The translations under genes and the position numbers were made by a program. This document shows positions 12,401 to 37,331 of a stretch of 64,000 nt of DNA, in pieces (position 1 is the stretch's first letter; each line of letters starts with the position of its first letter). The notes under the pieces are model-generated. The model was not told the origin of the DNA, did no database searches, and saw nothing but the letters and a program-made list of their open reading frames with translations. This DNA is from Prorocentrum cordatum. Taxonomy: Eukaryota. The stretch spans positions 1 to 64,000 of the forward strand of contig CAUYUJ010000229.1 in the NCBI GenBank assembly GCA_963575745.1, written 5' to 3'.

Positions 12401-15400
12401 CGAGGACGAGGTGGTCGCGCGGACGGGAGAGCGGATGATTTACGGGTGGCCCGGCCAGAGTGACGACCCGATCCCGGCGCGCTCCGTCGGTCGCTTCGCG
12501 AGGGCGTTCCCGTTGGAGTTCCCGATGGGCATCGGCGACCTCTTCGAGGACCGCCCTCGCCGGGTCTCCGTGCAGGAGTGGGTGCAGCACCTGATGCGCT
12601 ACCGCACCGGGCAGTTCGTTGGTGGTCCGCGTGGGCAGCGCGTGATGTGGGCTATGGTGAACGTGCTGCTCCTGAACGAGGCACGGGCGAAGGGCTTCGG
12701 CGTGTATCGGACCATGTACAGGCGGGCGGGGCTCGCGGTGCAGGGCCCGAGTGTGATGACCAAGGGTGGGCTCAGGCAGATCTTGGAGAGCGAGGACCGT
12801 GTGCGGATCCTGGTGGGTCAGCTGGCGAACGTTGGGCGCGACGTGCCCTCGACCACGATGCATTGGTCCTATGAGTCCAAGAAGTTGCAGAGTACCGTGA
12901 AGCACCTGTCCTGGCACCCGCCCTGGGTCGAGGGCCCTCTGGCGGACGGCGCGGAGCATGTCGGCAGGCGGTTCCTGCGCGAGATGGACCTGCCGGCGGG
13001 GAACGGTCGGACTCAGCGCAGGCGGCCTCTCGTGCCGGATGTTGTCGGGCTCGGCCGGCACCCGTCCATCTGGTGGACGCAGAATCCGTTCTACAATGCC
13101 GCGTTTGACATTCAGCGCATGGGAGGAGGCCGGGGGGCGCGGGCGGCAGGGGAGCGCGCTCTCGGGGATTGGGTGGGTGACGGGCGAGAGGAGCGCTTTC
13201 GGTTCGCTCGGGACAACCCGGACCTGGTGGCGTACATGATGGCCCTGCGGGTGGAGCTGAACATGCGGATGGTGATGCCCGCAGTGCTGCCGCACTCTGA
13301 GCAGTTCAAGTACATGGCCATGGCCAGGGCCGAGTGTGGCGCGGGAGGGAATCTGCACTACCACGGGTTCAGCGTAGGGTTGCCGGGGCCCGAGGTTGCG
13401 CGGGTGCGTGCGGACGTGGACGGGGAGGGCGACATGCTCCCGCCGAGCGTGACCAGCGACTTGGCGGCGTGTTTGCCATCGCTGGAGGCGGGGCCGATGG
13501 CTTGGCCCCCGCAGGAGCAGAAGCGCCGCGCCGCTGCTCTCGCGGTCCTGGAGCGGGTGCTGCGCGCCGCTGCCGGCCGGCCAGGCGCGCGTGCATCCAG
13601 GGGTCGCGGGGGTGAGGATACGGCGGCTTCAGGGTCTGGGAGTGAGGATGGCGCGGACGACGACGATGAGGATGAGTTCGTGGGCAGGGCTGATGCGCTG
13701 CTTGACGCGCTGGTGGATCGCGGGTGGTTGGTGATCGTGGATGTTGATGAGGGTGCGCGCGGTCGGGGAGGCGACCGAGATGTTGCGTTCGAGCGTGTCG
13801 GCCGAGAGATTTCCGCGCCTGTGGACGCGCTGGGAGAGAGTCCTGTGGAGGATGGTGAGGGCGGTGACGGCGCAGAGGACGCGGGTGCGGGTTGGCCTGG
13901 TCCCGCGGGGGTCCGCTTGCAGCGCTTGACGGGTGCTGGCGCTGATTTCGGCGTGCTGAAGCCAGAACACGAGAACGTTTCGCTGCAGAGCGTTCTGGAG
14001 AAGCGGTTCTATGAGTTCTTCGGGCACGTGGTCTCGGAGTGGAACCCCTGCTACGATGACGCGGGCGCGTGCAGATACACGTGGGACGACGAGGTTGGGG
14101 CCTTCGATGTTGACGTGGAGATGGAAGACCAGGCTGCTGCTGAGACGTCGGAGGCCCGGGCGGTCCGGAGCGTGCCTGCGTCTGCGCCGGAGTGCTTGAA
14201 CTTGCGGAAGGTTCTGGACGAGGCCTTTCAGTCCGAGGCAGCAGGGACGTTGGACGTGCAGCCGGTTCGGAGAATGGTGTCCGCGCTGGTGAACAGGGTT
14301 GCGCGCCACACGAAGCATGGCATGGGCCCGCCGAAGCTCGGGGTACATGCGTGTGCGCGCGGAAAGGAGGGGTGCGTGTTCTGCCGGTATGATTTTCCGC
14401 GAGAGAGGTGGGGCCGCGTCGGGCCGAGACCGTTCCGGATGGAGAAGGGGCGCAGGGAGGGCCACTGGCAGGCGGTGTTCCCGAGGAACGACCGGCTCTG
14501 CAACAGCTACGAGGAGCACGTGCTCCTGGCCAATATGGGGAACATCGATTGGCGCCCCGTCCTGAACCTGTGGGCCGTTGTGGAGTACGTCACGAAATAT
14601 GCGACGAAAGCGCCCAAGGGCTCGCGGAAGATCAAGGAGGTGCTGGACGACGCCGTCAACGAGGTCTGCGCGTACGTTCCCGACGGCGAGGGCACCGACT
14701 TCCTCCGACGCTCGATCCAGAAGTTCTTCGCTCGGATGCTCGGGGAGAGGGATTACCATTGTTACGAAGTGGCGCTGCTGGGGTTGCGCTTGCCAATGGT
14801 CTTGTCCATGATGCCCGTCGTGACTCTGAACACGACGGGCGCGCGTGCCCTGAAGCCTGCGTCCGCACTGCGGGACAAGTCGGAGGATGAGCCGGTTCAC
14901 TGGGATAGCAAAGTGGACAAGTTCGACAAGCGCCTGGAGTTGGTGCGGCGCCAGCGGGCCCGGGGCGACGGGTCCATCACGGAGGAGGAGGTGCGCGATG
15001 TGTCACTCTTCGAGTTTTACTGGAAGTACGCCGTGTATCGAGGGAAGCTGAGGCGCGGGAACCCTGCGGTGTGCCTGCAGGTGACGCCCGGCTATAGCGC
15101 GGAGTGTGCGAACGTGGAGCACGCCTGCCACGAGGCGTACGCGCGGGCGAACGTCATCGCGCACTGGCGGCACATGGCGACGGCGGACCGCAGAGCCATG
15201 ATCGGTGCAGAGATGCGGCGCGACGTCCGCCCTGTGCCGGAAGTCTGCATTGGGGCCACGGATTTCGTGCCCCATGCTGGGGGCGATCGGTTCCTGGGAG
15301 TGCAGGATCTGTGGTTCAAGTCGGGGGGGGCGGCTTGGAGGGGCAGGGAGGATCGGTTCTGGGGAGATATGTTGATGGAGATGCTCACGGACCCGATGCT

Positions 15401-18400
15401 CCGACAGTGGGTGCCGGCGTGGGTCGTGGAGCAGTACGAACGCGCGAATCCGTTCTACAAGGAGGTGCTGGGCGCAATCTTGGAGGCTGGTGGGGTGCGG
15501 ACCAACCGCGAGCTGCTGAGGCGGACGCGCCGCGAGATGGTGCGTCGGCACCGGGCGCGGCAGCAGGGGCGTGACGCTGGGGCGGGCGACGCCGCGGGCG
15601 ACGTGGGGGGCCAGGAATCCGACGGTGGCTCGAGGGAGGGTGACGCTGGCAGAGAGAGCGATGCGGCGGAGTCGGGGGAGGACGTGGAGGAGCTGGTGGA
15701 CAGACTCGCGCAGAACGCCGAGGACGATCCCAACGAGGAGCCTCGGGATATCGTGTTGCGCGACCCGCGACCAGGGGAGGGTGTGGAGGGTGCCGCAGGT
15801 GCGGGGGAGGTGTCCGAGTGGGATCGCCGCCCAGCGGATGAGCGTGTTAGCGCGGCGGGCCCCGCGGTGCAGGCGGCAGACGTGCGCGTCGGGGATGTGG
15901 CGCGGGAAGACGTTCGCGGGAGGGTGCGTGTGAACCCGAAGGATTTCAATTGGCTGGATGAACCGTGCAATGTGTCGACAGGGGAGAAGCGGCGCCTCGA
16001 GGAGCTGCGCGATGTCTGGTACGGCAAGGCCAACGTGGGTGACGGGGCCGAGGTCGTCTTGCGCGAAGACCTGGACCCCTGGCAGAAGTTTGCCCACGAC
16101 ATCGTTATGGATGGACGCCACTCCGAGAAGGACCCGCTCCGCCTGATGGTCACGGGCGTGGCAGGCACGGGGAAGTCGCGCACGGTGCGTAGTTTTGTGG
16201 CGGCGAGGCGACAGAGGGCGCGTCAGACGGCTCCGCGGACCAGAATGGATCGGGTGCCGGGCCTCCGGGGTGGGATGCGGGAGGGAAGGCGCTCTCAGTC
16301 GGAGATTGATGAGGAGGTGCGGAATTGCTGTTTGCTGGCTGCTCCGACAGGGTGCGCCTCGTTCCAGTTGAAGTATGGGGCGACTACTCTGCACAGGGCT
16401 TTCGGCGTTCCGGTGGGGTACTGCGGGCCTTGGAAGCAAAAGGGCGGTGAACGCTTCTTGCGGACGCGGGGCCGGTTGCGGCAGGCGAAGCTGTTTGTGT
16501 TGGATGAGATGAGTATGATCGGGCGGCAGATGTTGGGGAAGATCGAGTACAAGGTGCAGGACACTCTGGGCACGGATGCGAAGTTTGCGGCACGCGGAGG
16601 AGGCGGAAAAGGAGGAAAGGGGAGGAAGATGGAGGAGGAGAAGCCAGTGTATCTCGGCGGGAAGGATGTCGTGCTGGCAGGAGATCCGCAGCAGGCGCCG
16701 CCCATCGGCGACGATCCGTTGTATCGAATGGGCAAGTATGAGGGGCATGGGAAAAATAAGCCGAGGGGGGCGGAGCGCACTCCAGACGATGCGTGGAGCA
16801 CGGAGAAGTTGGTGGCCACGGGCCAGTTTGTGCGCAATACGTTCCAGGACGTCGCCGTGCTACGGCGCGTGCACAGATGGAGTGGGAAGAAGGAGGGTCT
16901 GTCCGCCGAGCGGCAGGCGGAGTACCGGCGGGATGCCGATCGTTTTCTGGAGGTGACCAAAGGAATGGCGCAGTGCACGTGGGACCAGTCGGATCATGCG
17001 TGGTTGAGGCGCCGGAACAGGTCGGTGCTGCAGATGACGAAGGAGGGCAGGGAGGAGCTCGCAGCGTTCGAGACGGCGCCGCTGCTGATGGATGGCAGGA
17101 AGGATCGGGCGTCGGGTGCCTGCGGCGCGGATAGGGTGAACCTGGAGAGGCTGTACCAGGTGGCGGCTGCCAGTGGCAAGCCCATTGCGTCTCTGCGCGC
17201 CTATCACAATTGGAAGGATAAAAGTAAATCTCGGCCGGAAGAGATGGCGGCCGACGATTTCCGAGGGATCGAGAACGAGCTTCACATGTGTGAAGGGGCG
17301 CGCGTGCTGCTGACGCAGAACTTGTGGGTCGAGGCGGGGTTGATGAACGGGGCGATGGGCACGCTGCGCGGGTACATGTGGCCGGACGGGGCGGACCCGC
17401 ACAACAGTGCGCGCCCGGATCTGCAGGCGCCCATTTGTGTTTTCGTCGAGTTCGACGACGTCGATCTGGGAAAGGACGAGAATGGCGAGCCGCGGTCTTT
17501 CTTCAAGAACGATCCTGTGCGCAAGAACTGGGTGCCCATCTGGAGGCAGACTGTATCGTCCACGACGGAGGACGGCCTCGCGCGCGAGAACTACCCGCTG
17601 CAGCTGGCGTGGGCTTTGACGCACTGGAAGGCGCAGGGGATGACGTTGGCGAAAGTCCGCGTGCACATGTCGGCGAAGACCGCGGCCGTCGCTGGGATCG
17701 GGTTCGTCGCAACGACGCGCGTCAGGCATCCGTGGGACTTGGTGTTCGAGGAAGACTTGCCGGAGTACGCGGACTTCATGCGGGCCAGGCACACGACGGC
17801 GTTCCGGGAGCGCCGTCGGTTCGAGCTGCGGTTGGAGGCGCGCGCTTCGTCAACGTTGCGGAAGTATGGGTACTGCGAGGCGGATTTGTGGACCGCAGAG
17901 GAGAGGTGTGCGGCGGGGAGATTGTTGGGCCGTCTCGAGACCGTCCGTGCGGCGCAGGCGGAGAGGCTCAGAGGTCTGAACAGAGTGGTGGATGATGACA
18001 CTTGGCTCTGGGGTGAGGACGGCGCGCCGTGCGTGTCCGCGTTGGCTGAGGCTGTCGATGCCGAGGCGGGGGGTGATGACGTCGCGCGGCGGCGTCTGAC
18101 CGCCGTGGCTGACAGGCTCCTGGACCGGAAGAGGGTGCGCGGTGTGACGTTGGAGGAACGCGAGGCCGCGCGGGAGCTGGCGGGTGGGGATGCAGAGGAT
18201 TTCTCTGGTGTTGACACGGTGGAAGAGTTGCGGGGGCGTTTGAGGGCTGCCGCTGCGCGGCTGTCGCGGGAGCGCCCAGACGACGACGGAGTGGAGTTGT
18301 TGGGCCGTGTCGCTGACATGATGGTGGATCGGTGGGTGGCGTGTGGGCGGTGGGATGGTCGCGTGTTCGATGTCGTGGAACCGAGCCTGGGCCCGCTGCA

Positions 18401-21400
18401 CATGAGCGCTGTGAAGGAGGCCATGGGTGCGCTGGTGCCGCCGAGACTGCACGGGAGCTTGGATAAGGCGGCCAGGAAGATGAAGGATGCGTTCGGGGAT
18501 GTTCGCGGTGGCTGCGCGCTGCGGATGGACAAGTGGGTCGTGAACGTGCGGTCGGAGGGCGCTCTGGCGGAGGGCAGACTGGAGCGTCAAGCGTTGGAGT
18601 TCTTCCTGAAGGTGGCGCGACAGCTGTGCTCAGGGTTAGACCTGCCGATGACTGTGGCCTCGGCAAAGGTGGGCGAGCACGTCGGCGCGGAGGAGAACCC
18701 AGAGCATTTTGCTCGGGTGGCGCACAACTGGACGAGCGTTTGGGACGCGAGCTGCGTCAGCGATAAGAAGGAGTTGCTGATGGTTGCTGCCGTGGACGCT
18801 CTGAGCGTGTCTGGCGTTCCCCAGGATTGGATCTTCGTGCGCGTCCAGGCTGGTCGGGCGGGGGAGGCGCTCGGGCGTGCCGAGTCTCTGACCGTGTGCG
18901 TGTACGATCGAGGCCGCAGGGAGGCGGTTGCAGGGCGAATCGCTCGGAATATCGACGCGCTGCTGCGGCCGATACAGGCCAGTGATGGGCGGCGCCCGCC
19001 ACCAGTGGTAGAGTTTGGGGAGGCGCCGCACGTTCGGGTGCCTTCGCAGAGGATCGCCGGCGCACTCGGGCTCCTGCTGGGCCACGTTGGTCGCGGGGCC
19101 GGTGCCAGGGTGCTGGATGCGTCGGCGGAGTCGTTCGTGCCAGACGTGTGTCGTGCGTTGCGGGGCGCGTTCGCGTCTTTCCGCGCGGGTGTCGGCGCGC
19201 GGGGTGCGCGGGATGTCATGGAGTTGTTGCTCTCGGACCAGGAGTGCCGTGACGCTCTGGACCTCTTCGGCGTCGCCCCGCGCGCGGATGTGTCTGGGCC
19301 CAGTGCGGCGGGCGCGGGCCGGGCGATGGCGGGTGTGGTGGGGAGGGCCGTGGACGAGGCAGGCGAGGGAGAGGGCCTTGAGGGCGCGTCGACGTTGTCG
19401 TTTGCGACGTGGAACATTGCTGGTGGGCATCGCGCTGCCGTGGCGCCGCATTCCTGGACCGCGCGGGATCAGCGCGCCGCGGTTCTTGGCGAGGTGCTCC
19501 GTTGGAGGCAGGCGCGCGGGTGTGACGTCGTTGCCTTGCAGGAGTGCGAGGGCGGGGGTGCGTACGAGGAGCTGTCAGGGGAGTTTCAATTGGCGGGCGT
19601 TGCGCAGGCGCACGAGTCCAGGGGGTATGTGCATCTGTACGTCAGGCACGGTCTGCGGGCGGAATCTGTGGCTGTGCCAGGGCAGGATCCGTGCGTGCTG
19701 TGCCGTGTCCAGGTGCCCGGAGACGGCGGCGCCGGCGGCGATGGGCACGTGCACGTGGCGGCGGTGCACCTGCCCACGGACGCGTCATGGGAACGGCGTC
19801 GTGCGATACTTGGGAAGATTGTGGCGAAGTGCGGGGACGAATGCCATCGGCTGCTCATCGTGGGCGACATGAACAGCACGGATGCGCAGGTGCAGGCAGC
19901 CGTGGAGCAGTTGCGTCTGAGGGACGCATGGTATGAGGGCCGATCCTGGGGTTGCCCCGGCAATAAGTTCTATTCGGGTCTCGGCGAGAGGGGGGCTGTC
20001 GGCCAGAGACGTGACCGGGTGCTCTTTGGAGCGGATCTCTGGTCCGAGGTGCACTTGGTAGGGAAAGGGAAGGTGTTCTTCGAGGGTTCCGAGTTCCACA
20101 TGTCCGACCACTATGGGCTGTTCGGGTATGTGCGTGCCCACGCGTGCTTTGGATCTCGGGAGCAGAAGATGAGGGCCGTGGCGCAGCGCGCGCGAGTCGT
20201 GCTGCAGGCGACGCGCGATCAGTCACAGAGACTGGAGGGTGTGGAGGTTCAGAGTCGGTTACAGCGTGGTCGAGAGGCCGCGGCGCTGGCCCGGCAGCAG
20301 GCGCAGGAACGAGATCGAGAGGCGTACTTGCGGACGCAGCAGCGGGCTGCCGGCCGCCGACAGCGCCGTCGGGAACAAGCGATATCCGCAGCGTTCGGGC
20401 CACAGAGTTTGTTTGCTTTGGGTCGCCCGGTTCCGCCGCCGCCGAGCCCCTGCCCGCCTCCGCCGCCACCGTGCCCGGCAGACATGTATGTCCCGAACGT
20501 GGCTGGCATTCGCGCGGCTTCGTGGGACAGCGTGCGGTGCGTGCCCGTCCGAGGGATGCCGCGGCCATGGCACACCTGCTACGTGGTCAGTGTGACGCAG
20601 CTGATGTTGCGGACGCCTGCCGTCTTGGAGTGGCTTCGATGGCATTCAGAGCAGCAGTGCGAGGACCGGGGCACGGGGCGTTGTTGCGTGTGCGGGATGT
20701 GGGAGACGTACAACCAGTTGTGCTCGCGACGCTGGCAGCAGGGACCTGTGAGTGTGCTGCGGCGTACGAGCGTTGACTGCGACGACGATGTGATGGGGCG
20801 GCCGAGTGAGTTCAATGACCCGTGGCAGCAGCAGGATGTGTTTGCGTATTGGGGTAAGCTGATGGTGGCTGCGCGTGACGCAGAGATGTTGGCAGGTCGG
20901 TTTGCGCAGCGGGAACCCGATAGCATCCGCGCGGTGAATCTGCGGGTGACGTGCGTTGATCAGATGTTCGGGTTCGTCGTGGAGAAGCGGGAGAAGTGTG
21001 ACGTGTGCAATTACGAGACTGTCGCGTACGAGGCTGAGGATGTGCTGAAGCTGCGTGTTCATGGGCGTCCAGGTGGGCCCTTGATGCTGCAGGAGTTGTA
21101 CTGCGACTTTTGTGCTCCTGAAGATATCGAGAAGAGCTGCCCGGGGTGCTGCCGCGACGAGCACGACCGGGTTAAGCACGTGAGGCAGACGAGAGCCACT
21201 GGTGTGCCACAGGTTCTGGTGGTTCAATTGAGGAGGGGCTCCGAGGCGCGGGAGGCAGTGTGGGTGGAAGAGCAACTGAGGCTGCCAGGGCTTCCCCAGA
21301 TGCAGTTGGTCGGTGTGGTTTACCATAATGGGCGGTCAGTTAATTGCGGCCATTACACGACTCTGTGCCGCGTTCATGATGGGAGGTACTTCATGTTTGA

Positions 21401-22730
21401 CGACGACGAGCCACCGCGCTTGATCCGAGACGAGCCGGCGCACATCAAGCAGAAGGAGGCGTACATGGCAGTGTATTGCCGCCTGGGCCGCGGTCAGGGG
21501 CAGGGCGCGGGCGCAGGTGCGACCGAGGTGGACGCAGCGCGTGAGGGGCAGGGCAGTGGCGGGAGTGGGCCGGGGGGCGGTGATGCGAGTGCGTCTGGTG
21601 GCGGCGGATGGGGCGGGGGTGGGGCTGTTGGTGGTGACGCCGACGGAGCGACGGAGCGCGAGGGGGGGAGTGGGGCGTCGGCGGCCCGAGGGAACGGGCG
21701 CGCGGGCGGCGTCGCTGGCGATCGGGCCGGGGCTTCGGCGTCTGTTGGGTCGAGGGGTGAGCCTACGTCCGGCGGTGGAGTTGGTGCAGGGCCAGGCCGT
21801 GGAGGACGCAGGGAGGGCGTTGTCTCGGTTGCCGCCGCCGAGCCGCGTTCCGCGAGCAGGCGCCTGCGGAGGAAGTGCGCGGTTTCGACGTCAGGGGAGG
21901 GGCGCGCCGTCGATGGTGATTGTGCGGCTGGGCGGCGAGCGGTCACGACGAAGGGCAGGGCTTCGGGCGCAGCCGAGTCAAGGGGCGCGGCAGGCGCCCG
22001 CGACTTGACCGCTGGGGTTGGCGGGGGGGCGGTGTCTCCGAGGGAGGGGGGGGTCTCTGGCTCGCCTGGTGGCGCCGCTCCGCGTTCCGCCGCGCGGCGG
22101 GCACGGGAAAAGACGGCGACGCCTCGCTCGGATGCAGGGGCGGCGGGTGGCGCGGCGGGCGCGGCTGGAGTCAGGGATGTCGGCGGGGAGCGCGACGTCG
22201 CTGGGCCAGGGCGCGTCCGAGGTGCTCGAGGGTCCGGGGGGGCGCGCGCGGGCGGCGGGGGTCTAGGTGGCGATGTGGCGTGCGCGAGTGTCGCGGGGGG
22301 GAAAGATGCGGCAGCGGTGGAGACGGTGCGGGTTTCAGCGTCGGGGAAACGAAAGGTGGAGCCTCGGTCAGAGGCGGAGGTCCCGCGGAGGAGCTCGGCG
22401 CGTTTGGCGGCGCGAGCTGCGCCCGGCCCCGTCGCGGTCGAGGAGGGGGCTGCCGCGGGCGAGGGCGCGTATATACGGGGGGGGGTGCTGGTGCGCCCGA
22501 GGCGCGCGGAGCCGTCTGGACCGTCGAGTGGCGGCGGCGCCGCGCGAGTGGTGACAGGTTTCGGCGCGGGAAGGATCGAGAACTTGGCTGCGTTCCAGCG
22601 CAGCCGCGATTTGGGGGATGCGACGCGCGCGTCGCAGCGGGTCTCGGAGGGGGCCCGAGGGAGGTGCGTGGATATGCAGGGGAATGAGCTGGATCCGTCT
22701 GCGGGGTCCGCCTGGCATGCGGGTCGATAG
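2856..22730 (+). CDS. 6624-aa Rep-helicase polyprotein: 2x papain-like module, DUF4116, aGPT-Pplase-like domain, split CW finger, DUF6570-like region, HUH Rep, PIF1 helicase, Ulp1-like domain, EEP nuclease, USP protease
   Basis: 19.9 kb with no stop codon and many recognisable motifs in Helitron order. The annotated start is TTG and the first in-frame ATG is at 3009. Confidence 0.93.
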   Translation: MVTGVGLGSVAAVASVPAPSVRGAERAPLLGGSVEWEDRLRESLRAEHDVFMEEVVDDSAWEAAKREQKAHRKACRALLRRSRCARREAEWARRTEAAAARNEEMAVRVPLRVVPRSLPRDGSPRARDELPRRARVSRAALGGRRSARLQQFLNARAARAVDSVSTPRVALPSLEARVSALSVGEVALIAALVFAALGLFPPRPQVLSGGRAVTRAMARARMWKERESFWRDVDAPSDAAPSAAKVWVAKWFYCGLRGLSARRCGGRRVCARRFSPGIGIRAARARAGRGADECVGGAAWRASQRAGQCVGDAALRVACVFAAVGGVSCDVCSRVGRLGAAGGVGASRAWRRRLRRGVASGRLGVVDAGDRLGPWRNKCLQLSVARCGGTGARAQAECFFELQCANDSGAGACGDAAEKANFALVQDWLESRGAMVRVYGADGADALLRGVCCAVWVLGCPCGHDFGSVVWYPEGHVAAVVDSDDRLGARVRVGDADAAPWLRSVAGAPKAGMGGVNPDAAGMKRPRRDFASAVGSPGGSSRSDAVFMAPSLGGPQRGDGDVERLLPADEVSKSSSSAGVSGVPPVVPASAAPTVSAHLDDAAASFASPVVPDDGVRDSVGQKCACDGTSPHCKFGQMVLGSGGHAGRKCGNRVSMKGDWCGKCNGRCHGGQRGGAVGCVADIASASDAVLNRGAAWESLPQHLRMDRGVVLRVVGARGGALASVPIEFRDDVEVVLAAVRSDDFAWASVSERLRLDPRVVEEVAGQLAETADEVSHDDWTVLPQFASVLVRSMGPLAAAVTSQHVRDKERMCVLRHLCPADSLVKGLVAPGGIRFASPSLAERQCLQFLAEKYKLKPEFVHFKCVWLLHIAVAITGIAPASVPIHGPSDAAGGESDGFVLGSLYQPCLLKRFERGVSNGRITPLGTFARKRGQFAAGLHSPVPDLSPTTLAHRVAALFPNGSLASEDAFRVWVFYDLVFRFFADIAGFEAFLEVTGGLLRDIDAWARRARLVLAECPCPAYFWGSTNDGRREFPMDLVRRRVEEIGWCMSWQGVSDADEPIARVLAFVAFLGDWAVGARRIAAGVMRLQSSRTDLHAIAEDIALDFCLPGFAHAGECRKFEYYWPKFPFSDLVLYFQVSRASRASGRFLLGQRKVQALEAVTFNGRGGRLPLVAFDMEPSLGLYKKLRDLDSDLLRSDALPIRECWVGPRCVDPALLTAYDPQVTNCMLWKHDVCVWKPPNQRFLGVSRDVDAFYRFWRKTYRVERQNVSAPRGVQDPLLPPPVPVSSPSVPVPSPSSAGAAWCLRVQDSATAGRLSVVDYGSVFVGLPRKCFPLCIAASGGSAWNIADATAFFAERLSNDVGTGMGGGVVEKANMDLVLLWLQMRSAGYWVFRAKASSDFFSGAVAGPWWLGAPGAACVGALLWLEHGHVVRIVDDDGVFLSASFSAGVSSAESADAPWLRSVAGAPKKKAAAKSKRGAHFRGAQNPISMAAVAARQRRATGEDGAPSSSGEDMPVIPGVTVDDADSGDAAGASVLRRPAAAAATHGRASGDESDSGEDMPMLPGVTVEEDDAGAARARSDAVAPQAAAARRALRGAASAAAPPSDSDGEEMPVLPGVTVDVGGADDGASDGSGPAARPRGARRARRKRGAADGALASEAESRQFQPDYVDEDRCKGLTWGGGWGREQCRFRPKTGSDVCGKCARYGCPHGRVRGPIPAGALDKFKEFALKANKPSKQWYARHAMWDVASKMKPELKSLCEVDEHKRFVLTNSEYEQCLKQVHDNLRIHKNHGRSGFVYEKGAGVRTLQDRCGEGTTRFGSERESYNGQQGGKVFMWYSRAVFNKYLGQLQASEMDCSEKDCVEALRLTSEEIRRYPMKQQYLRPYAGPQCYPHIDPRSKENRLHANERMGHALGEDPQGGGDGGARPEACGGADDGASHLFCMRNWAQCDRCHCWRLLLPACAARARGDEYYRVRDTDLDWEGWLTGAAHRCAAAAGASRDQGAALGGGGGDAVEGAMQQGGGADEGGGGGEMRGGARKRRLGRKTSEAEAAEPVAVRGGARKRRLGRKTSEAEAAASGAGRRGAEEGRAGEGGAEVPEARRGRRRLERKTSAEEGAEAGGAVRGAVDEEGGGDETFVGMAELSASDCDDERSASDHECASEEDAAPLPREVRSALDAELVRFAGAGPPTEADWAEARAAEEGRGSAPRRAGLSRTGGGDARAWAVASVPHLKDKRMVALVGAVREYLVLCRQCDRGSFRIQGSDGDKLWVALMEPGRPGQFGRVLLELEDRARGRGPSAERSSWEAIAVEEDFRRRSEWPRVRFECSMLQTPVVSESGGTQWRAVRCCDEPDGGDADDFQALWQRESRVAAGFAANVVRDDDVVVLPVERPAGWTEPAHMAGAWWRGQGPRERRAEEGENPGRVWVGQLQEDAGVAGLLPEGGAGERTAKEGLDALQQAGQGARGAGRAGRGRGRRAKKRGRYGNDLRAVIRTRWAPGRSSEGAGPGVAESFVFGSAPESEHWEIRVEARLRERCGGRVDQRARVAAGDVHQKCMLLALKTVPLRVAKYDVQLRDASVRAVQAAQAILTRMVKFTCHECQERFPAFHPAFEPPDQLADEMLLLRRGGDGLAACSTEVAEWDEVPPSDPPDGFALECAGVCMRCRRDLDKQAAAAPTEDDLYQVVGLRTAQNHMDPCFRFPSDDLRDLFDQATLTESLLIALDHMQVHLATVSRTGLRKFRKNIISFPQDVAGFARRHELMKGYRVGDRVNSVRGPGERPDDPHRPERIAAGGTDEERQRFGVDVYGRLVFPGRVAEVLLSGEVIIDYDHGGRGRELQENVEPRVMLPWHPRKVPFSLMLRRNVGFGKEVVEGLHVRWRYCGHLLRALCAFAGTCGPWRLGGTANEPMHKYYDPRLFDVLPDDDIIRCYAPKESDDGAVLSGDEAGEAEGPGPVTRAEAIARDTVPCGVDVVTPRQFIAAGFDVHFVGPRDEAQRGARVRDGDGAQRGDEGGQDAAGDGGAMEADEDQFDVGDGDEAMAVDHDVFSAWLEKAQFRYGGAVQRWWAGLQPEAEGHLEGLKFGDDETTEDLFGRLLDAARGESKVVAVQRDRVPVECVCVDFLVHWMGPRVGGPFSDPGGGVTPEAVLDDVMLELAMAGRFVGAAQDKDTGCVEENLPEFDEDEVVARTGERMIYGWPGQSDDPIPARSVGRFARAFPLEFPMGIGDLFEDRPRRVSVQEWVQHLMRYRTGQFVGGPRGQRVMWAMVNVLLLNEARAKGFGVYRTMYRRAGLAVQGPSVMTKGGLRQILESEDRVRILVGQLANVGRDVPSTTMHWSYESKKLQSTVKHLSWHPPWVEGPLADGAEHVGRRFLREMDLPAGNGRTQRRRPLVPDVVGLGRHPSIWWTQNPFYNAAFDIQRMGGGRGARAAGERALGDWVGDGREERFRFARDNPDLVAYMMALRVELNMRMVMPAVLPHSEQFKYMAMARAECGAGGNLHYHGFSVGLPGPEVARVRADVDGEGDMLPPSVTSDLAACLPSLEAGPMAWPPQEQKRRAAALAVLERVLRAAAGRPGARASRGRGGEDTAASGSGSEDGADDDDEDEFVGRADALLDALVDRGWLVIVDVDEGARGRGGDRDVAFERVGREISAPVDALGESPVEDGEGGDGAEDAGAGWPGPAGVRLQRLTGAGADFGVLKPEHENVSLQSVLEKRFYEFFGHVVSEWNPCYDDAGACRYTWDDEVGAFDVDVEMEDQAAAETSEARAVRSVPASAPECLNLRKVLDEAFQSEAAGTLDVQPVRRMVSALVNRVARHTKHGMGPPKLGVHACARGKEGCVFCRYDFPRERWGRVGPRPFRMEKGRREGHWQAVFPRNDRLCNSYEEHVLLANMGNIDWRPVLNLWAVVEYVTKYATKAPKGSRKIKEVLDDAVNEVCAYVPDGEGTDFLRRSIQKFFARMLGERDYHCYEVALLGLRLPMVLSMMPVVTLNTTGARALKPASALRDKSEDEPVHWDSKVDKFDKRLELVRRQRARGDGSITEEEVRDVSLFEFYWKYAVYRGKLRRGNPAVCLQVTPGYSAECANVEHACHEAYARANVIAHWRHMATADRRAMIGAEMRRDVRPVPEVCIGATDFVPHAGGDRFLGVQDLWFKSGGAAWRGREDRFWGDMLMEMLTDPMLRQWVPAWVVEQYERANPFYKEVLGAILEAGGVRTNRELLRRTRREMVRRHRARQQGRDAGAGDAAGDVGGQESDGGSREGDAGRESDAAESGEDVEELVDRLAQNAEDDPNEEPRDIVLRDPRPGEGVEGAAGAGEVSEWDRRPADERVSAAGPAVQAADVRVGDVAREDVRGRVRVNPKDFNWLDEPCNVSTGEKRRLEELRDVWYGKANVGDGAEVVLREDLDPWQKFAHDIVMDGRHSEKDPLRLMVTGVAGTGKSRTVRSFVAARRQRARQTAPRTRMDRVPGLRGGMREGRRSQSEIDEEVRNCCLLAAPTGCASFQLKYGATTLHRAFGVPVGYCGPWKQKGGERFLRTRGRLRQAKLFVLDEMSMIGRQMLGKIEYKVQDTLGTDAKFAARGGGGKGGKGRKMEEEKPVYLGGKDVVLAGDPQQAPPIGDDPLYRMGKYEGHGKNKPRGAERTPDDAWSTEKLVATGQFVRNTFQDVAVLRRVHRWSGKKEGLSAERQAEYRRDADRFLEVTKGMAQCTWDQSDHAWLRRRNRSVLQMTKEGREELAAFETAPLLMDGRKDRASGACGADRVNLERLYQVAAASGKPIASLRAYHNWKDKSKSRPEEMAADDFRGIENELHMCEGARVLLTQNLWVEAGLMNGAMGTLRGYMWPDGADPHNSARPDLQAPICVFVEFDDVDLGKDENGEPRSFFKNDPVRKNWVPIWRQTVSSTTEDGLARENYPLQLAWALTHWKAQGMTLAKVRVHMSAKTAAVAGIGFVATTRVRHPWDLVFEEDLPEYADFMRARHTTAFRERRRFELRLEARASSTLRKYGYCEADLWTAEERCAAGRLLGRLETVRAAQAERLRGLNRVVDDDTWLWGEDGAPCVSALAEAVDAEAGGDDVARRRLTAVADRLLDRKRVRGVTLEEREAARELAGGDAEDFSGVDTVEELRGRLRAAAARLSRERPDDDGVELLGRVADMMVDRWVACGRWDGRVFDVVEPSLGPLHMSAVKEAMGALVPPRLHGSLDKAARKMKDAFGDVRGGCALRMDKWVVNVRSEGALAEGRLERQALEFFLKVARQLCSGLDLPMTVASAKVGEHVGAEENPEHFARVAHNWTSVWDASCVSDKKELLMVAAVDALSVSGVPQDWIFVRVQAGRAGEALGRAESLTVCVYDRGRREAVAGRIARNIDALLRPIQASDGRRPPPVVEFGEAPHVRVPSQRIAGALGLLLGHVGRGAGARVLDASAESFVPDVCRALRGAFASFRAGVGARGARDVMELLLSDQECRDALDLFGVAPRADVSGPSAAGAGRAMAGVVGRAVDEAGEGEGLEGASTLSFATWNIAGGHRAAVAPHSWTARDQRAAVLGEVLRWRQARGCDVVALQECEGGGAYEELSGEFQLAGVAQAHESRGYVHLYVRHGLRAESVAVPGQDPCVLCRVQVPGDGGAGGDGHVHVAAVHLPTDASWERRRAILGKIVAKCGDECHRLLIVGDMNSTDAQVQAAVEQLRLRDAWYEGRSWGCPGNKFYSGLGERGAVGQRRDRVLFGADLWSEVHLVGKGKVFFEGSEFHMSDHYGLFGYVRAHACFGSREQKMRAVAQRARVVLQATRDQSQRLEGVEVQSRLQRGREAAALARQQAQERDREAYLRTQQRAAGRRQRRREQAISAAFGPQSLFALGRPVPPPPSPCPPPPPPCPADMYVPNVAGIRAASWDSVRCVPVRGMPRPWHTCYVVSVTQLMLRTPAVLEWLRWHSEQQCEDRGTGRCCVCGMWETYNQLCSRRWQQGPVSVLRRTSVDCDDDVMGRPSEFNDPWQQQDVFAYWGKLMVAARDAEMLAGRFAQREPDSIRAVNLRVTCVDQMFGFVVEKREKCDVCNYETVAYEAEDVLKLRVHGRPGGPLMLQELYCDFCAPEDIEKSCPGCCRDEHDRVKHVRQTRATGVPQVLVVQLRRGSEAREAVWVEEQLRLPGLPQMQLVGVVYHNGRSVNCGHYTTLCRVHDGRYFMFDDDEPPRLIRDEPAHIKQKEAYMAVYCRLGRGQGQGAGAGATEVDAAREGQGSGGSGPGGGDASASGGGGWGGGGAVGGDADGATEREGGSGASAARGNGRAGGVAGDRAGASASVGSRGEPTSGGGVGAGPGRGGRREGVVSVAAAEPRSASRRLRRKCAVSTSGEGRAVDGDCAAGRRAVTTKGRASGAAESRGAAGARDLTAGVGGGAVSPREGGVSGSPGGAAPRSAARRAREKTATPRSDAGAAGGAAGAAGVRDVGGERDVAGPGRVRGARGSGGARAGGGGLGGDVACASVAGGKDAAAVETVRVSASGKRKVEPRSEAEVPRRSSARLAARAAPGPVAVEEGAAAGEGAYIRGGVLVRPRRAEPSGPSSGGGAARVVTGFGAGRIENLAAFQRSRDLGDATRASQRVSEGARGRCVDMQGNELDPSAGSAWHAGR
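3936..4385 (+). other. Duplicated module copy 1: GRLxVVD...KC...EKAN...W..GHV...APWLRSVAGAPK (putative papain-like protease plus cleavage motif)
   Basis: Aligns with copy 2. Cys codon at 3990 and His codon at 4281. Confidence 0.55.
4920..5147 (+). other. DUF4116-type helical repeats
   Basis: AWESLPQHLRMDRGVVLRVV / ALASVPIEFRDDVEVVLAAV / AWASVSERLRLDPRVV: 25-aa periodic pattern typical of DUF4116. Confidence 0.75.
5550..6650 (+). other. Globular domain resembling the aGPT-Pplase1 / 5-hmdU-DNA-kinase helical (HhH-glycosylase-related) family
   Basis: Ordered motifs LVFRFF, LPGF...FSDLVLY, TFNGRGGRLPL and LTAYDPQVTNCMLWKH parallel the family's FR/KxFN, DLxY, GPGAxxGL and DxQxxxCExxKY motifs (comparison from memory). 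Confidence 0.45.
6798..7265 (+). other. Duplicated module copy 2 (putative papain-like protease plus APWLRSVAGAPK motif)
   Basis: Cys codon at 6852 and His codon at 7146. The terminal motif is identical to copy 1 at the protein level. Confidence 0.55.
7881..8015 (+). other. Cys/His-rich putative zinc-binding motif RCxxxxWGGGxGxxQC...CxxC...HGRVxGPIP
   Basis: Motif read from the translation; family not assigned. Confidence 0.5.
8697..9923 (+). other. CW-type zinc finger apparently split by a ~370-aa insertion
   Basis: WAQCDRCHCWRLL (8700-8738) and FECSML...CDEPD (9837-9923) match the two halves of zf-CW. Confidence 0.5.
10647..14830 (+). other. Helitron Rep region: CxxC...CxxC finger, DUF6570-like segment, Helitron_like_N, HUH and Y2 motifs
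   Basis: FTCHECQERFP...CMRC; TLTESLLIA...KNIISFPQDV; AFPLEFPMG; GRHPSIWWT (motif I); NLHYHG at 13350-13367 (HUH); YVTKYATK at 14586-14609. Confidence 0.9.
16071..17760 (+). other. PIF1-family SF1B helicase domain
   Basis: GVAGTGKS (16155-16178), LAAPTG, TTLHR, LDEMSM, GDPQQAPP, GARVLLTQN, YPLQLAWALTHWKAQGMTL, FVATTRV. Confidence 0.96.
18555..19090 (+). other. Degenerate Ulp1/SENP (C48)-like fold, apparently lacking the catalytic His and Cys
   Basis: LAEGRLERQALEFFL, KELLMV...QDWIFV and VCVYDR parallel the C48 WLxDxxIxF, HWxL and IxxYDS motifs. Confidence 0.35.
19395..20135 (+). other. EEP (APE/TDP2-like) endonuclease/phosphodiesterase domain
   Basis: FATWNIAG, DVVALQE, AVHL, IVGDMN, RDAW, RDRVL, SDHYGL. 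Confidence 0.9.
20550..21482 (+). other. Ubiquitin-specific protease (peptidase C19) domain
   Basis: Cys box GMPRPWHTCYVVSVTQ (Cys at 20577), QQQD, CxxC/CxxC finger, His box HNGRSVNCGHY (His at 21351), FDD, AYMAVY. Confidence 0.88.
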
Positions 22731-23218: not shown

Positions 23219-23348
23219 CTGTGTGCCTGTCTGTGTGTCTGTGTGTCTATGTCTCTATGTGTCTATGTGTCTGTGTGTCTGTGTGTCTGTGTGTCTGTGT
23301 TTTTGCGTCTGTGTGTCTGCGTGTCAGTGTGTCAGTGTGTCTGTGTAT

Positions 23349-23391
<43 letters not shown>

Positions 23392-26300
23392 TGTGTGTCT
23401 GTCTGTCTGGGTGTTTGTGTGTCTGTGTGCCTGTGTGTCTATGGTCAGGAGGAAAAAAGCACAGACGCAATTAATCGTCGCTTCCATAGAATATATGGGA
23501 AAATATGGGGAGTGGGATGGAAGACAAAAGCACAGAAAATATGGGAACATATGGGGATTTGTTTAATTTGTGTGTATTCATTTGTGTGTCCTGGGGCCCC
23601 TTCATTTTTGCCTGCGTGTCTGTGTGTCCTTGTGTCTGCGTGTCTGTGTGTTGTTGTGTCTGCGTGTCTGCGTGTCTGTGTGTCCGCGTGTCTGTGTGTC
23701 CGTGTGTCTTGTGTGTCTGTGTGTCTGTGTGTCTGTGACTCTGGTGCTCTGTGTGTCTGTGTGCTTGAGTGTCTGTGTCTCTGTGTGTCTGTGTATTTGT
23801 GTGTCTGTATGTCTGCGTGTCTGCGTGTCTGTGTGTCTTCGTGTCTGTGTGTCTGTGTGTCCGTGTGTCTGTGTGTCTGTGTGTCTGTGTGTCTGTGTGT
23901 CTGTTTGTGTGTGTGTCTGTGTGTCTGTGTCTGTGTGTCTGTGTGTCTGTGTGTCTGTGTGTCTGTGTGTCGGTGTGTCTGTGTGTCTGTGACTGTGTGT
24001 CTGAGTGTCCGTGTGTATTTTGTGTCTGTATGGCCGTGTGTCTGTCTGTCTGTGTGTGTGGTTGTCTGTGTGTCCGTGTGTCCGTGTGTCCGTGTGTCTG
24101 TGTGTCTATGTGTCTGTCTGTCTCTCTGTATGTCTGTCTGTCTGTTTGTCTGTCTGTGTGTCTGTGTGTCAGTGTGTCTGTGTGTCTGTGTGTCTGTGTG
24201 TCTGTGTGCCTGTGTTTCTGTCTTTCTGTCTTTCTGTGTGTCTGTGCGTCTGTGCTGCTGTGTGTCTGTGTGTTTGTGTGTCTGTGTGTCAGTGTGTCAG
24301 TGTGTCTGTGTGTCTGCGTGTCTCTGTGTCTGTGTTTCTGTGTGTCAGTGTGTCAGTGTGTCTGTGTCTCTGTGTGTCTGTGTGTCTGTGTGTCTGTGTG
24401 TCTGTGCGTCTGTGTGTCTGGGTGTCTGGGTGACCGTGTGTCTGTGTGTCTGTGTGTCTGTGTGTCTGTGTGTCTGTGTGTCTGTGTGTCTTGTTTTTTT
24501 TTTTTGCGTCCGTGTGTCTGTGTGTCAGTGTGGCAGTGTGTCCGTGTAACTTTTTGTCTGCGTGTCTGTGTGTCTGTCTGTCTGTGTGTCTGTGTGCCTG
24601 TGTGCTTTTGTGCCTGCGTGTCTGTGTGTCCCTTTGTCTGCGTGTCTGTGTGTGTTGGTGTTTCTGCGTGTCTGCGTGTGCTTGTGTGTCTGTGTGTCTG
24701 TGTGTCTGTGTGTCTGTGTGTCTGTGTGTCTGTGTGTCTGAGTGTCTGTGTGTCTGTGTGTCTGTGTGTCTGGTGCTGTGTGTGTCGGTGTTTTTGAGTG
24801 TCTGTGTGTCTGTGTGTGTGTATTTGTGTGTCTGTGTGTCTGCGTGTATGCGTGTCTTTTTGTCTGTGTGTCTGTGTGTCTGTGTGTCTGTGTGTCTGTG
24901 TGTCTGTGTGTCTATGTGTCTGTGTGCCTGTGTGTCTGTGTGTCCGTGTGTATGTGTGTCTGTGAGTCTGTGTGTCTGTGTATCTGTCTCTCTGTCTTTC
25001 TGTTTGTCTGTGTGTCTGTTTGTCCGTGTGTCTGTGTGCCTGAGTGTCCGTGTGTCTGTGTGTCTGTGTGTCTGTGTTTCTGTGGGTCTGTGTGTCCGTG
25101 TGTCTGTGTGTCTGTTTGTCTGTGTGTCCCTGTGCCTCTGTGTCAGTCTTCCTGTCATTCTTTGTGTCCTGTGTCTGTGTGTTTGTGTATCTGTGTGTCT
25201 GGTTGCTTGTGTGTCTGTGGGTCCGTGTGTCAGTGTGTCTGTGTGTCTGTGTTTCTGTGTGCCAGTGTGTCAATTTGTCAATTTGTCAGTGTGTCAGTGT
25301 GTCTGTGTGTCTGTGTGTCTATGTGTCTGTGTGTCTGGGTGTCTGGGTGTCAGTCTGGCAGTGTGTCCGTGTGTCTGTGTGCCTGTGTGTCTGTGTATCT
25401 GTGTGTCTGGTTGTCTGTGTGTCTGGGTGTCTGTGTGGTTGTGTGTCTGTGTGTCTGTGTGTGCGTGTGTCCGTGTGTCTGTGTGTCTGCATGTCCGTGT
25501 GTCCGTGTGTCCGTGTGTCTGTCTGTCTGTGTGTCTGTGTGTCTGTGTGTCTGTGTGTCTGTGTGTCTGTGTGTTTCTGTTTTGGTGTGTCTGTGTGTCT
25601 GTGTGTTGGTGTCTGTGTGTCCGTGTGTCCGTGTGTCTGTGTGTCTGTGTGTCTGTGTGTCTGTGTGTCTGTGTCTGTGTGTCTGTGTGTCCGTGTGTCT
25701 GTGTGTATGTGTGTGTGTCTGTCTGTCTGTGTGTCGGTGTGTCTGTGTGTCTGTGTGTCTGTGTCTGTGTGTCTGTATGTCCGTGTGTCTTTTGTGTCCG
25801 TGTGTCCGTGTGTCCGTGTCTGTGTGTCTGTATGTCTGTGTGCTTGTGTGTCTGTGTGTCTGTGTGTCTGAGTGTCTGCGTGTCTGGGTGTCTGTGTGTC
25901 TGTGTGACTGGTTGTCTGTGTCTCTGTGTATCCTTGTGTCTGCGCGTCTTTGTGTCTGTGTGTCTGCGTTTCAAAATGTCAGTATGTCTGTGTGTCTGTC
26001 TGTCTGTGGATCTGTCTGTGTGTCTGTCTTTCTGTGCGTGTGTGTGTGGGTGTCTGTCTGTGTGTCTGTGCGCGTGTATTTGCGTGTGTGTGTGTGTGTG
26101 CGCGTGTGTGTGTGTGTGTCAGTGTGTGTGTGTGTGCGCGTGGCGCTGGCATCCCCGCGCTGCCCCCCCCTCCCCTTTCCCGGGCGCTCCGCGAGGGCGG
26201 AGTGGTTGGAGTGGAGGGAGGGCCCGCCCTAAATTGGGGCGGTGCCTCCCCCCTCCGGAGCGTCTGCGTGTCTGTGTTTCTGCGTGTCTGTTTGTCTGTG

Positions 26301-36623: not shown

Positions 36624-36662
<39 letters not shown>

Positions 36663-36708
36663 GTGTCTGCTGTCTGTGCGTGTGTGTGTGTCTGTCTGTC
36701 TGTCTGTC

Positions 36709-36755
<47 letters not shown>

Positions 36756-36785
36756 GTCTGTCTGTCTGGTCTGTCTGTCTGTCCG

Positions 36786-36843
<58 letters not shown>

Positions 36844-37331
36844 GCGCGTGTGTATGCGTGTGTGTGCGTGTGTGTGTCAGTGCGTGTGTGTGTGCGCGCG
36901 CGGCGCTCGCAACCCCGCGCCCCCCCTCCCCCTTCCTCCAGCGCCCCGCGAGGGCGGAGTGGTTTGAGTGGGGGGAGGGCCGGCCCCAAGATGGGGCGGT
37001 GCCTCCCCCCTCCGGAGCGCCGGGAGGAGGTCGGGGGGGGGTTCGTGCGTGTGTTTGTAAGTGTTCGTTCGTGTGACGTGGGTGTGGTTGTAAGTGTGTT
37101 CGTTTGTGCGTGTGTGTGTGTGTGCGTTTGCTTGTGTGACTGTCTCTGTTCTCAGTGCGTGTTTTCTGTGGGTGTTCGCGATTGCGTTCGTGTGTCTGGT
37201 GCGTGTGTGTGTGTGTCTGGTGCGTGTGTGTGTGTGTGTGCGCGTGTGCCTGTGTGTTCGTGCGTGTGTGTGTGTGCTTTTCCGTTTGCGTGTGTTTATG
37301 TTTGTATGAGTGGGTGCGCGTGTGTCTGGTA

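Follow-up and report, generated by a model that had tools for sequence, protein, structure and literature searches.

Architecture of the locus

The window analysed here comprises the first 64,000 nucleotides of contig CAUYUJ010000229.1 of the dinoflagellate Prorocentrum cordatum (GenBank assembly GCA_963575745.1, forward strand), and all positions are numbered from its first letter. It contains a giant open reading frame (ORF) in which the Rep and helicase (Rep-Hel) regions of a Helitron-like element are followed by a complete EEP domain. This domain very probably belongs to the lineage of the phosphodiesterase TDP2. An original prediction, made from the sequence alone, had proposed that the domain is closer to TDP2 than to a LINE endonuclease, that it was captured independently, and that it could release Rep from DNA ends, possibly together with an adjacent USP. 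The following features, all on the forward strand, were located:

2820-22730, forward strand: stop-free frame of 6,636 codons encoding the giant polyprotein, first Met at nt 3009
12867-14969, forward strand: Rep (HUH) region, with HYH at nt 13356-13364 and the two-tyrosine motif YVTKYATK at nt 14586-14609, both read directly
16143-17750, forward strand: Pif1-family SF1 helicase, Walker A GTGKS at nt 16167, Pfam PIF1 (E 2.4e-9) and AAA_19
18507-19394, forward strand: clan-CE-like (ULP/SENP/NEDP1-like) fold of 296 residues between helicase and EEP domain, conserved in the family (alignment A2)
19374-20156, forward strand: TDP2-like EEP phosphodiesterase domain, in frame in the giant ORF (envelope of the family hidden Markov model, HMM)
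20157-20400, forward strand: basic Arg/Gln/Glu-rich helical linker followed by a Pro-rich stretch, read from the sequence
20571-21476, forward strand: USP/UCH deubiquitinase, Cys box HTCY at nt 20571 and His box CGHY at nt 21345
21477-22727, forward strand: Gly/Ala/Arg-rich low-complexity tail of the ORF, without a Pfam family match

The giant ORF lies in DNA of 63-70% G+C and has codon-position G+C contents of 0.71/0.53/0.76, which are typical of coding sequence. The probability that 6,636 codons remain stop-free by chance was estimated from the base composition to be far below 1e-50. Three Pfam families scored above their cut-offs in the ORF, namely a Pif1-like helicase, EEP and UCH/USP. The PIF1 match was placed at nt 16323-16712, and solved Pif1 helicases in the PDB matched at E 1e-10. 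For the Rep region a weak, sub-threshold match to REP_ORF2-G2P was obtained over the HUH motif (E 0.087), and 25 of 30 feature hits in the ESM Atlas fell into Helitron_like_N clusters (score 0.95), which was treated as a lead only; Helitron_like_N itself was not matched by the Pfam scan of the giant ORF. The HUH motif, the two-tyrosine motif and the Pif1-like helicase are encoded in one frame, with Rep upstream of the helicase as in Helitron-like Rep-Hel proteins, and the EEP domain therefore sits in the Rep-Hel polyprotein of a Helitron-like element.

Identification of the EEP domain

Scanned on its own, the domain was matched by Pfam PF03372 over the entire profile (positions 1-225 of 225) with 53.3 bits (cut-off 24.5) and E 4.1e-14. 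The match corresponds to nt 19404-20111 and had an E of 4e-12 when scanned within a long piece of the ORF; the NCBIfam scan returned no family for the domain. The codon-position G+C contents of the stretch (0.71/0.50/0.76) are as expected for coding in this frame, and by tblastn the domain occurs once in the window. The six catalytic residues of the EEP superfamily are all present in this copy (N5532, E5575, D5683, N5685, D5763 and H5764 in giant-ORF numbering), together with H5650 and W5710. The EEP domain is thus genuine and not a chance match, and it is predicted from its residues to be a catalytically intact, Mg-dependent EEP phosphodiesterase.

The eight strings on which the original prediction had relied (TWNIAG, HLPTDASWERRRAIL, GDMN, RDAW, SWGCPGN, RDRVLF, LVG and SDHYGL) were all found in the frame-1 translation of 19395-20135. 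The TDP2 motifs cited there for comparison (TWNIDG, HLES..R, GDTN, DVWE, TWD..N, RFDR and SDHW) were likewise seen when the TDP2 chains of human, mouse and C. elegans were aligned by HMMER.

Affinity to TDP2

A scan of 1.84 billion representative proteins yielded 209 relatives of the window domain at E ≤ 1e-3, 102 at E ≤ 1e-10 and 24 at E ≤ 1e-30; among the homologues from word-indexed searches there was no named TDP2. A family profile (A1) was built from 23 family members and searched against the PDB, and the best 60 of the 93 matches were inspected. Of the best 15 sequences, 13 were TDP2 chains, from C. elegans, human, mouse and zebrafish (E 2.5e-11 to 1.3e-8), and two were nocturnin entries (E 8.3e-10). 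Lower down came exonuclease III at 1.1e-6, sphingomyelinases together with inositol phosphatases in the range from 1e-4 to 1e-3, and APE1, whose matches were no better than 3e-3. A LINE-1 endonuclease was absent from the best 60 of the 93 matches. The AlphaFold (AF2) model built on A1 has an EEP fold, with a predicted local distance difference test score (pLDDT) of 92. When it was compared with the PDB by Foldseek, TDP2 chains took ranks 1-7 (E 1.7e-13, template modelling score (TM) 0.63-0.66, 20-21% identity), and the LINE-1 endonuclease 2v0r followed at rank 44 (E 3e-11, 12% identity).

Standalone proteins of about 250 aa were found as distant matches of the window domain, and these link the family to TDP2. 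In PDB searches with three of them, TDP2 made up 13 of the 15 (P0133), 13 of the 13 (P0144) and 13 of the 13 (P0148) sequences at E 1e-10 to 5e-16, whereas nocturnin was matched at 4e-3 or not at all. For reciprocal comparison one HMM was made from 27 full-length family rows and a second one from the standalones. The family HMM gave 100-151 bits for the standalones and the intermediate rows P0126 and P0158, compared with 32-63 bits for five bacterial or unassigned EEP proteins, 41 bits for the LINE-1-like endonuclease P0161 and 16 bits for E. coli XthA. Conversely, the standalone HMM gave 130 bits for the window domain (family median 115, range 80-150), 19 for P0161 and 13 for XthA. P0161 is a valid LINE-1-like control, carrying PF14529 and RVT_1 and matching LINE-1 ORF2p structures.

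Family and standalones also have in common an insert of about 8 extra residues after the first catalytic motif, referred to as 'AP..W'. Its Ala, Pro and Trp/Phe/Tyr are found in 25, 26 and 26 of the 27 family rows and in 8, 9 and 8 of the 10 standalones, respectively. The insert is absent from the aligned TDP2 chains, and the motif was not seen in XthA, in P0161 or in four of the five EEP outgroups of bacterial or unassigned origin. The spacing from the catalytic Asn to the Glu is 39-44 residues with the insert and 28-37 residues otherwise. The outgroup P0162 has a spacing of 44 and a loosely similar 'PAGWW' at the same place, and for this reason the insert is a good but not exception-free marker. 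The standalones that share it (P0133, P0144, P0148, P0105, P0122, P0151, P0140 and P0165, the last from Chlamydomonas schloesseri) differ from the window protein in that they are single-domain and nearer to the canonical TDP2 motifs (TWDT, GDTNMRD, RYDR).

Animal TDP2 (TTRAP) is the best sequence-profile and fold match of the window family in the PDB. Both have the EEP fold, the catalytic N, E, D, N, D and H, the residues H236 and W307, RxDR, and a block resembling GDxN(v/l)R(d)xE. The window domain differs in being only 20-21% identical, in the 8-residue 'AP..W' insert after the first motif, in lacking a UBA-like N-terminal domain, and in its position within a transposon polyprotein, where the CE-like fold precedes it and the USP follows. 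No UBA of the type found at the N-terminus of TDP2 was detected by Pfam in the giant ORF. The proposal of a closer affinity to TDP2 than to endonucleases of the APE or LINE type is thus supported by the profile ranking in the PDB, the fold ranking, the bridging standalones, the reciprocal HMMs, the shared insert and the signature residues described below. Judged from these sequences, the most likely source of the domain is a cellular TDP2-like gene belonging to the 'AP..W'-insert subfamily, which includes a Chlamydomonas protein.

Comparison with Helentron and APE-type endonucleases

Helentrons also carry an EEP-superfamily domain, the endonuclease (EN), C-terminal to Rep-Hel, and it is accompanied by a deubiquitinase-family protease (PMC4067079; this and the other articles are cited for the passages concerned). 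Supplementary file S6 of the same article gives motif blocks for 12 Helentron ENs, 6 non-long terminal repeat (non-LTR) ENs and 3 cellular APE/ExoIII enzymes. Block IV has Tyr in 21 of these 21 sequences, block II has 'ET' in 20 of 21, and block VII is SYH in 9 of the 12 Helentrons. In the window family, block IV has His in all 27 rows, block II reads QE followed by C, V, S, N or A, and block VII is SDH. The Tyr of block IV was also found in XthA and P0161 in the alignment made here. Written out, the Helentron ENs show N.QSL, sETW, GGV, vY, GDFN and SYH, whereas the window family shows TWN, LQE(c), GY, vHL, GDxN and SDH. The accompanying proteases differ as well, the Helentron protease being an OTU encoded in OTU protease ORFs and the window protease a USP encoded in the same ORF as the EEP domain.

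Helentron ENs are described as matching PF14529 and as closest to CR1 endonucleases (PMC4067079). PF14529 was matched neither in the window, even at E ≤ 10, nor in any of 47 homologues, although it does match the control P0161. This absence is supportive and not decisive, because the HELIANO paper annotates Helentron EN under both PF03372 and PF14529 (PMC11417382).

An identity as a CR1/APE-like Helentron endonuclease is contradicted by the block IV His, the lack of 'ET' and the SDH, with the lack of PF14529 as further support.

The window domain does not carry the Helentron EN signature and is therefore not a Helentron EN; an acquisition separate from that of the Helentrons is the simplest reading. 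The claim of an independent capture is sustained to this extent, while the tree described below does not settle the placement. A further dinoflagellate Rep-Hel protein of Helitron-like type, the Helitron2-like RepHel of Symbiodinium microadriaticum (Heringer and Kuhn 2021), is reported in the passages concerned of PMC8788227 to be without an AP endonuclease domain, and it is set beside the window by its description only.

Relatives and conservation of the architecture

Most relatives are fragments from short contigs, and one (P0007) is an unnamed protein of Prorocentrum cordatum. Among 47 relatives analysed with Pfam, PF03372 was found in 36. A UCH domain follows the EEP domain in seven (P0004, P0005, P0007, P0026, P0055, P0057 and P0083), weak UCH_1 matches were obtained in two more (P0023, E 0.005; P0044, E 0.06), and helicase matches precede the EEP domain in three (P0047, P0048 and P0120). 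P0048 repeats the order Rep, helicase, EEP; its EEP domain is 37% identical to that of the window, and the C-terminal half of the window Rep region is matched with 43% identity over 770 aa and with the tyrosine motif kept. Divergent family members repeat the succession of helicase, CE-like fold, EEP and USP. Owing to this recurrence, the order Rep, helicase, EEP and usually USP belongs to the family and not to one gene model. A segment similar to the linker at 20157-20400, which from its sequence may be coiled-coil-like, follows the EEP domain in P0003, P0008, P0014, P0019, P0032, P0050 and P0072.

Two relatives were observed in addition. P0153, the closest one (85% identical), departs abruptly from the window sequence just before SDH ('FTCPTTMGC' versus 'FHMSDHYGL'); its end reads as a frame change, so that it is probably a damaged copy or contains a sequencing error. 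In P0160, a protein of 890 aa from an Alphaproteobacteria metagenome-assembled genome, the EEP domain is accompanied by an MJ1316 domain for RNA cyclic-end recognition, by a 2H domain (2'-5' RNA ligase-like) and by a weak match to poly(A) polymerase, a combination that has the appearance of a TDP2-like EEP domain placed among RNA-end repair functions.

Phylogenetic placement and active-site residues

Quick maximum likelihood (ML) trees were calculated from 43 and 44 rows with 251-253 columns, comprising 27 family members, 7-8 standalones, 2 intermediate rows and 7 outgroups. Apart from the outgroups, the rows cover at least 215 profile positions and fragments were left out. The window family formed one group (Shimodaira-Hasegawa-like approximate likelihood ratio test, SH-aLRT, 96 and 86), which joined the TDP2-like standalones apart from all outgroups (SH-aLRT 93-94 on this branch). 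The outgroup branches are very long, with 2.3-2.9 changes per column.

The residues were tallied over the 27 full-length family rows in mouse TDP2 numbering, with the use of HMMER alignments to mouse and human TDP2; their roles in TDP2 were taken from a review (PMC5778467). The result was as follows:

N130: kept in 26 of 27 rows, kept in the window
E162: kept in 26 of 27, kept in the window
D272: kept in 27 of 27, kept in the window
N274: kept in 26 of 27, kept in the window
D358: kept in 22 of 27, kept in the window
H359: kept in 22 of 27, kept in the window
H236: kept in 27 of 27, kept in the window
W307: kept in 27 of 27, kept in the window
D326: kept in 27 of 27, kept in the window
R327: kept in 21 of 27, kept in the window
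Y188, as an aromatic residue after Gly: 18 of 27, Tyr in the window
F325, as an aromatic residue: 24 of 27, Arg in the window
R276, as Arg/Lys: 19 of 27, Thr in the window
S239, as Ser/Thr: 8 of 27, Thr in the window
D132, as Asp: 2 of 27, Ala in the window

The position equivalent to N314 is Phe/Tyr in 27 of 27 rows, and the one equivalent to L315 is Tyr/His/Phe in 20 of 27. In TDP2, W307, F325 and the hydrophobic L315 are 'grasp' residues of motif M7, and H236, S239, R241 and R276 belong to motifs M5 and M6.

A number of results weigh against a close affinity to TDP2 or against a TDP2-like function. The last four rows of the list belong here, F325 and R276 for the window copy, S239 for its low count in the family and D132 for both. 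P0153 shares the two changes of the window copy (R276 to Thr, F325 to Arg). The family does not retain L134 (Gly in the window), R241 or the M214-M215-R216 patch of the tyrosine pocket, so that of the residues associated with the tyrosine pocket and Mg (D132, L134, Y188, M214-M215-R216) Y188 alone is retained. The 'grasp' stretch was modelled without helices and with a pLDDT of 65 (residues 201-210), and its beta-2-helix-beta motif was not seen. Searched alone against the PDB, the window domain gave no EEP match at E ≤ 10 but only chance matches to enterovirus protease 2A, and because it does not reach TDP2 in this way the family profile was needed. On that profile nocturnin scored 41.4 bits and mammalian TDP2 41.7-43.7 bits. 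In the Foldseek comparison the E values of other EEP proteins were near that of TDP2 (3mpr 9e-13, sphingomyelinase 9e-12) and the TM-scores to TDP2 are low, so that the fold ranking, which agrees with TDP2, discriminates weakly. As regards the architecture, the EEP domain of P0043 is followed by more than 1,100 residues, in which no UCH match was obtained at E ≤ 1.

The trees contain no named TDP2, nocturnin/CCR4, APE1, CR1 or Helentron sequences, and three alternative placements were not rejected by the approximately unbiased (AU) test: the family together with the LINE-1-like EN (log-likelihood difference 0.17, p 0.494), with the LINE-1-like EN and XthA (0.07, p 0.486), and with three bacterial EEP proteins (2.91, p 0.393). 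A fourth constraint was already present in the tree and hence uninformative. Since the AU tests leave these three alternatives, the TDP2 assignment was not rested on the tree. The EEP phylogeny asked for by the original prediction therefore gave a divided answer, the ML tree placing the family beside the TDP2-like standalones while the three alternatives stand at p 0.39-0.49 and no named TDP2, APE1, CR1 or Helentron sequence was included; it is best regarded as consistent with an affinity to TDP2, not as decisive. From its residues, the window domain is predicted to be a TDP2-lineage enzyme and not an orthologue-like copy of animal TDP2, with an adduct pocket that differs.

Part of these results would also fit a nicking endonuclease that does the proposed job of the Helentron EN, the cutting of a target or donor strand by which rolling-circle transposition is started or completed, on a re-purposed TDP2-like scaffold. 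The domain has the position of the Helentron EN, C-terminal to Rep-Hel (PMC4067079), residues of the adduct pocket are lost (D132, M214-M215-R216 and R241, in the window copy also R276 and F325), the grasp region was not modelled as beta-2-helix-beta, and the AU tests allow a position beside the LINE-1-like endonuclease. This explanation is nevertheless unlikely, as the family has His at block IV where all 21 APE, non-LTR and Helentron sequences have Tyr, TDP2-like proteins are ahead by 60 to 110 bits in the profile and reciprocal HMM scores, the end-binding W307 and an aromatic residue at F325 are conserved in the family, and nicking is already supplied by the HUH Rep (PMC4778049).

The changes of R276 and F325 in the window copy and in P0153, along with the loss of SDH from P0153 through an apparent frame change, might point to a passenger domain, derived from a captured piece of a host gene, that plays no part in transposition and is either decaying or neutral. 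Helitron-like elements do capture many domains, and 20 stably carried ones are listed in Table S11 of PMC11417382. That the EEP domain is such a passenger is very unlikely in view of its preservation in frame with catalytic residues intact in 22-27 of 27 rows that have diverged to about 34-37% identity, of the recurrence of the order helicase, CE-like fold, EEP, USP in divergent members, and of a window ORF that runs through 6,636 codons without a break.

An RNA- or nucleotide-directed enzyme like nocturnin/CCR4, acting as a deadenylase or phosphatase and not on DNA ends, is suggested by the nocturnin score within the TDP2 range (41.4 bits, E 8e-10) and by the bacterial relative P0160, in which the EEP domain is joined to RNA-end repair domains (MJ1316, 2'-5' RNA ligase-like). 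The nocturnin match, however, is in two pieces, the best of which covers profile positions 46-99 only, the bridging standalones reach TDP2 at 1e-10 to 5e-16 while their matches to nocturnin are either missing or at 4e-3, and the neighbouring Rep and helicase domains are DNA enzymes, so that this reading is highly improbable.

Ubiquitin-related domains flanking the EEP domain

The stretch between the helicase and the EEP domain gave no Pfam match (18507-19394). Its AF2 model (pLDDT 83, core above 90) had as top Foldseek matches in the PDB exclusively proteases of ubiquitin-like (Ubl) proteins, with NEDP1 first (E 3.5e-5), followed by NopD, SENP5, Ulp1 and SENP2. The TM-scores are modest, 0.35-0.46 when normalised by the query and up to 0.62 when normalised by the target. 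Where the catalytic His-Trp is expected, motif inspection, carried out without superposition, showed Asp/Glu followed mostly by Trp or Cys in all 14 rows; the Asp is kept in 17 of 17 rows, and the position of Cys-Gly reads Leu/Phe/Tyr-Gly in most rows. The fold thus matches clan CE, and the His-Asp-Cys triad of this clan appears to be incomplete. From its sequence it seems to be an inactive protease that lacks the catalytic His and Cys, and the modelled fold might bind a ubiquitin-like protein.

The USP downstream of the EEP domain, which the original prediction had named as a possible partner, proved to be real. It was matched by PF00443 with 57.9 bits (cut-off 23.9) over profile positions 8-254 of 254 (E 4e-14 within a long piece of the ORF, 1.6e-15 within 20136-22727), and both its Cys box and its His box are present, from which it is apparently active. 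Processing of the polyprotein by the USP was also considered; the ORF contains a single LRGG, and Pfam detected no ubiquitin-like domain in it.

Putative role of the EEP domain in the element

The identity of the domain, its affinity to TDP2, and the architecture and its conservation are shown by the present analysis. As background for a role, Helitron Rep is known to nick the transposon end and to stay attached through a 5'-phosphotyrosine intermediate (PMC4778049), and TDP2 hydrolyses 5'-phosphotyrosyl DNA, picornavirus VPg-RNA and the link between hepadnavirus P protein and DNA (PMC5778467). Because Rep forms a 5'-phosphotyrosine and TDP2 cleaves such bonds, hydrolysis of the element's own 5'-tyrosyl link is the most likely role of the domain. 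The Rep-DNA phosphotyrosyl bond would then be the substrate, and the domains of the polyprotein, the USP included, may cooperate. By analogy with TDP2, the EEP domain would grip the DNA 5' end through the conserved Trp and the aromatic 'grasp' residues, and it would hydrolyse the 5'-phosphotyrosyl link, whether in the Rep-DNA intermediate as such or in a Rep adduct that has stalled or been degraded in part, and leave a ligatable 5'-phosphate. That this whole chain holds, from a TDP2-lineage EEP domain fused to Rep-Hel to hydrolysis on the element's own intermediate, is given slightly less than an even chance. A point that counts against it is that in canonical rolling-circle transposition the phosphotyrosine is resolved by strand transfer, for which no hydrolase is needed (PMC4778049).

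TDP2 has a ubiquitin-binding domain of its own, and its protein substrate must first be proteolysed or remodelled (PMC5778467). In the element, the CE-like fold and the USP could recognise or trim ubiquitin-like marks on the Rep adduct. The polyprotein might accordingly be pictured as a transposon-borne repair module for DNA-protein crosslinks, in which a Ubl-binding pseudo-protease, a TDP2-type phosphodiesterase and a USP are fused to the Rep-helicase and unhook the transposase, or its ubiquitin-marked remnant, from the 5' end; this more elaborate proposal is a tentative one and rather doubtful as it stands.

The evidence for TDP2 affinity would serve equally well for a TDP2-type enzyme aimed at host lesions, such as trapped topoisomerase II or other 5' blocks that arise as the helicase unwinds long tracts of DNA, or employed in end cleaning at donor or target sites. 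The canonical TDP2 substrate is the topoisomerase II adduct, which is handled via ubiquitin/SUMO pathways (PMC5778467), and the flanking Ubl-related domains would fit this case too; no evidence separates it from an action on the Rep adduct. It is still considered quite unlikely, since the host presumably has an enzyme of its own, as standalone relatives exist, and the covalent fusion to Rep-Hel would argue for an action in cis on the intermediate of the element.

Helitron-like elements with EN, OTU and even UCH domains are already in print (PMC11417382, Table S11), and in the passages concerned the authors of the Helentron and Pif1 papers call the roles of the APE/CR1-like EN and of the deubiquitinase-family proteases undetermined (PMC4067079, PMC8788227). 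A full-text literature search, with bioRxiv supplements and subscription literature outside its range, returned no paper that holds both Helitron and TDP2, and among the matches listed for TDP2 with HUH and Rep, judged by title and the start of the abstract, there was no transposon paper; most concerned hepatitis B. New against this background are the recruitment of a different EEP enzyme by a separate Helitron-like lineage, with ubiquitin-related domains on both sides, and the CE-like fold, apparently a pseudo-protease, just upstream of the EEP domain. The closest characterised relative of the recruited enzyme specifically hydrolyses the 5'-phosphotyrosyl bond, the kind of bond made by an HUH Rep. 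Elements with protein-linked 5' ends, for example picornaviruses and hepadnaviruses, are so far known to borrow the host enzyme (PMC5778467). Should the activity be confirmed, the window would hold the first known case of a mobile element that encodes an unlinkase of its own, and a concrete biochemical role for the accessory domains of Helentrons would be suggested. If the proposal of a crosslink-repair module were true, the Helentron pair of APE-like EN and OTU would be a second, independent solution to the same problem, with a testable role.

Repeated sequences in and around the ORF

The N-terminal part of the ORF, of about 3,300 residues, gave only weak Pfam matches (DUF4116 and DUF6570). 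In its sequence (window 4353-9100) several short motifs occur twice each: PWLRSVAGAPK at nt 4353 and 7233, a Cys-rich 'CGKC' motif at nt 4836 and 7959, GEDMPxxPGVTV at nt 7392 and 7530, and RKRRLGRKTSEAEAA at nt 8976 and 9048. These repetitions suggest duplicated modules; a comparison of the giant ORF with itself by BLASTP with the SEG filter detected no long internal duplication at E ≤ 1e-5.

About 900 bp past the end of the ORF a (CTGTGTGT)n microsatellite begins, which extends over approximately 13 kb (23228-36893) with 1,667 copies and 76% matches and has a strong skew of T over A and of G over C. By analogy with the tandem repeats carried by Helentrons, it may be part of the element. Further downstream (38964-62528), many blocks of a 175-178 bp satellite with 2-6 copies each and 73-88% matches are spread over 24 kb, and the G+C content of this region is about 50%, well below the 63-70% of the ORF. 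Upstream of the ORF, a (CGA)147 run lies at 965-1409, and 99-bp and 93-bp repeats with a common 'GGGAGGGGGAAACTATCGCGAATTTTT' core are located within 1-2736 (at 1-555 and 2519-2736); these upstream repeats may represent terminal or subterminal repeats of the element.

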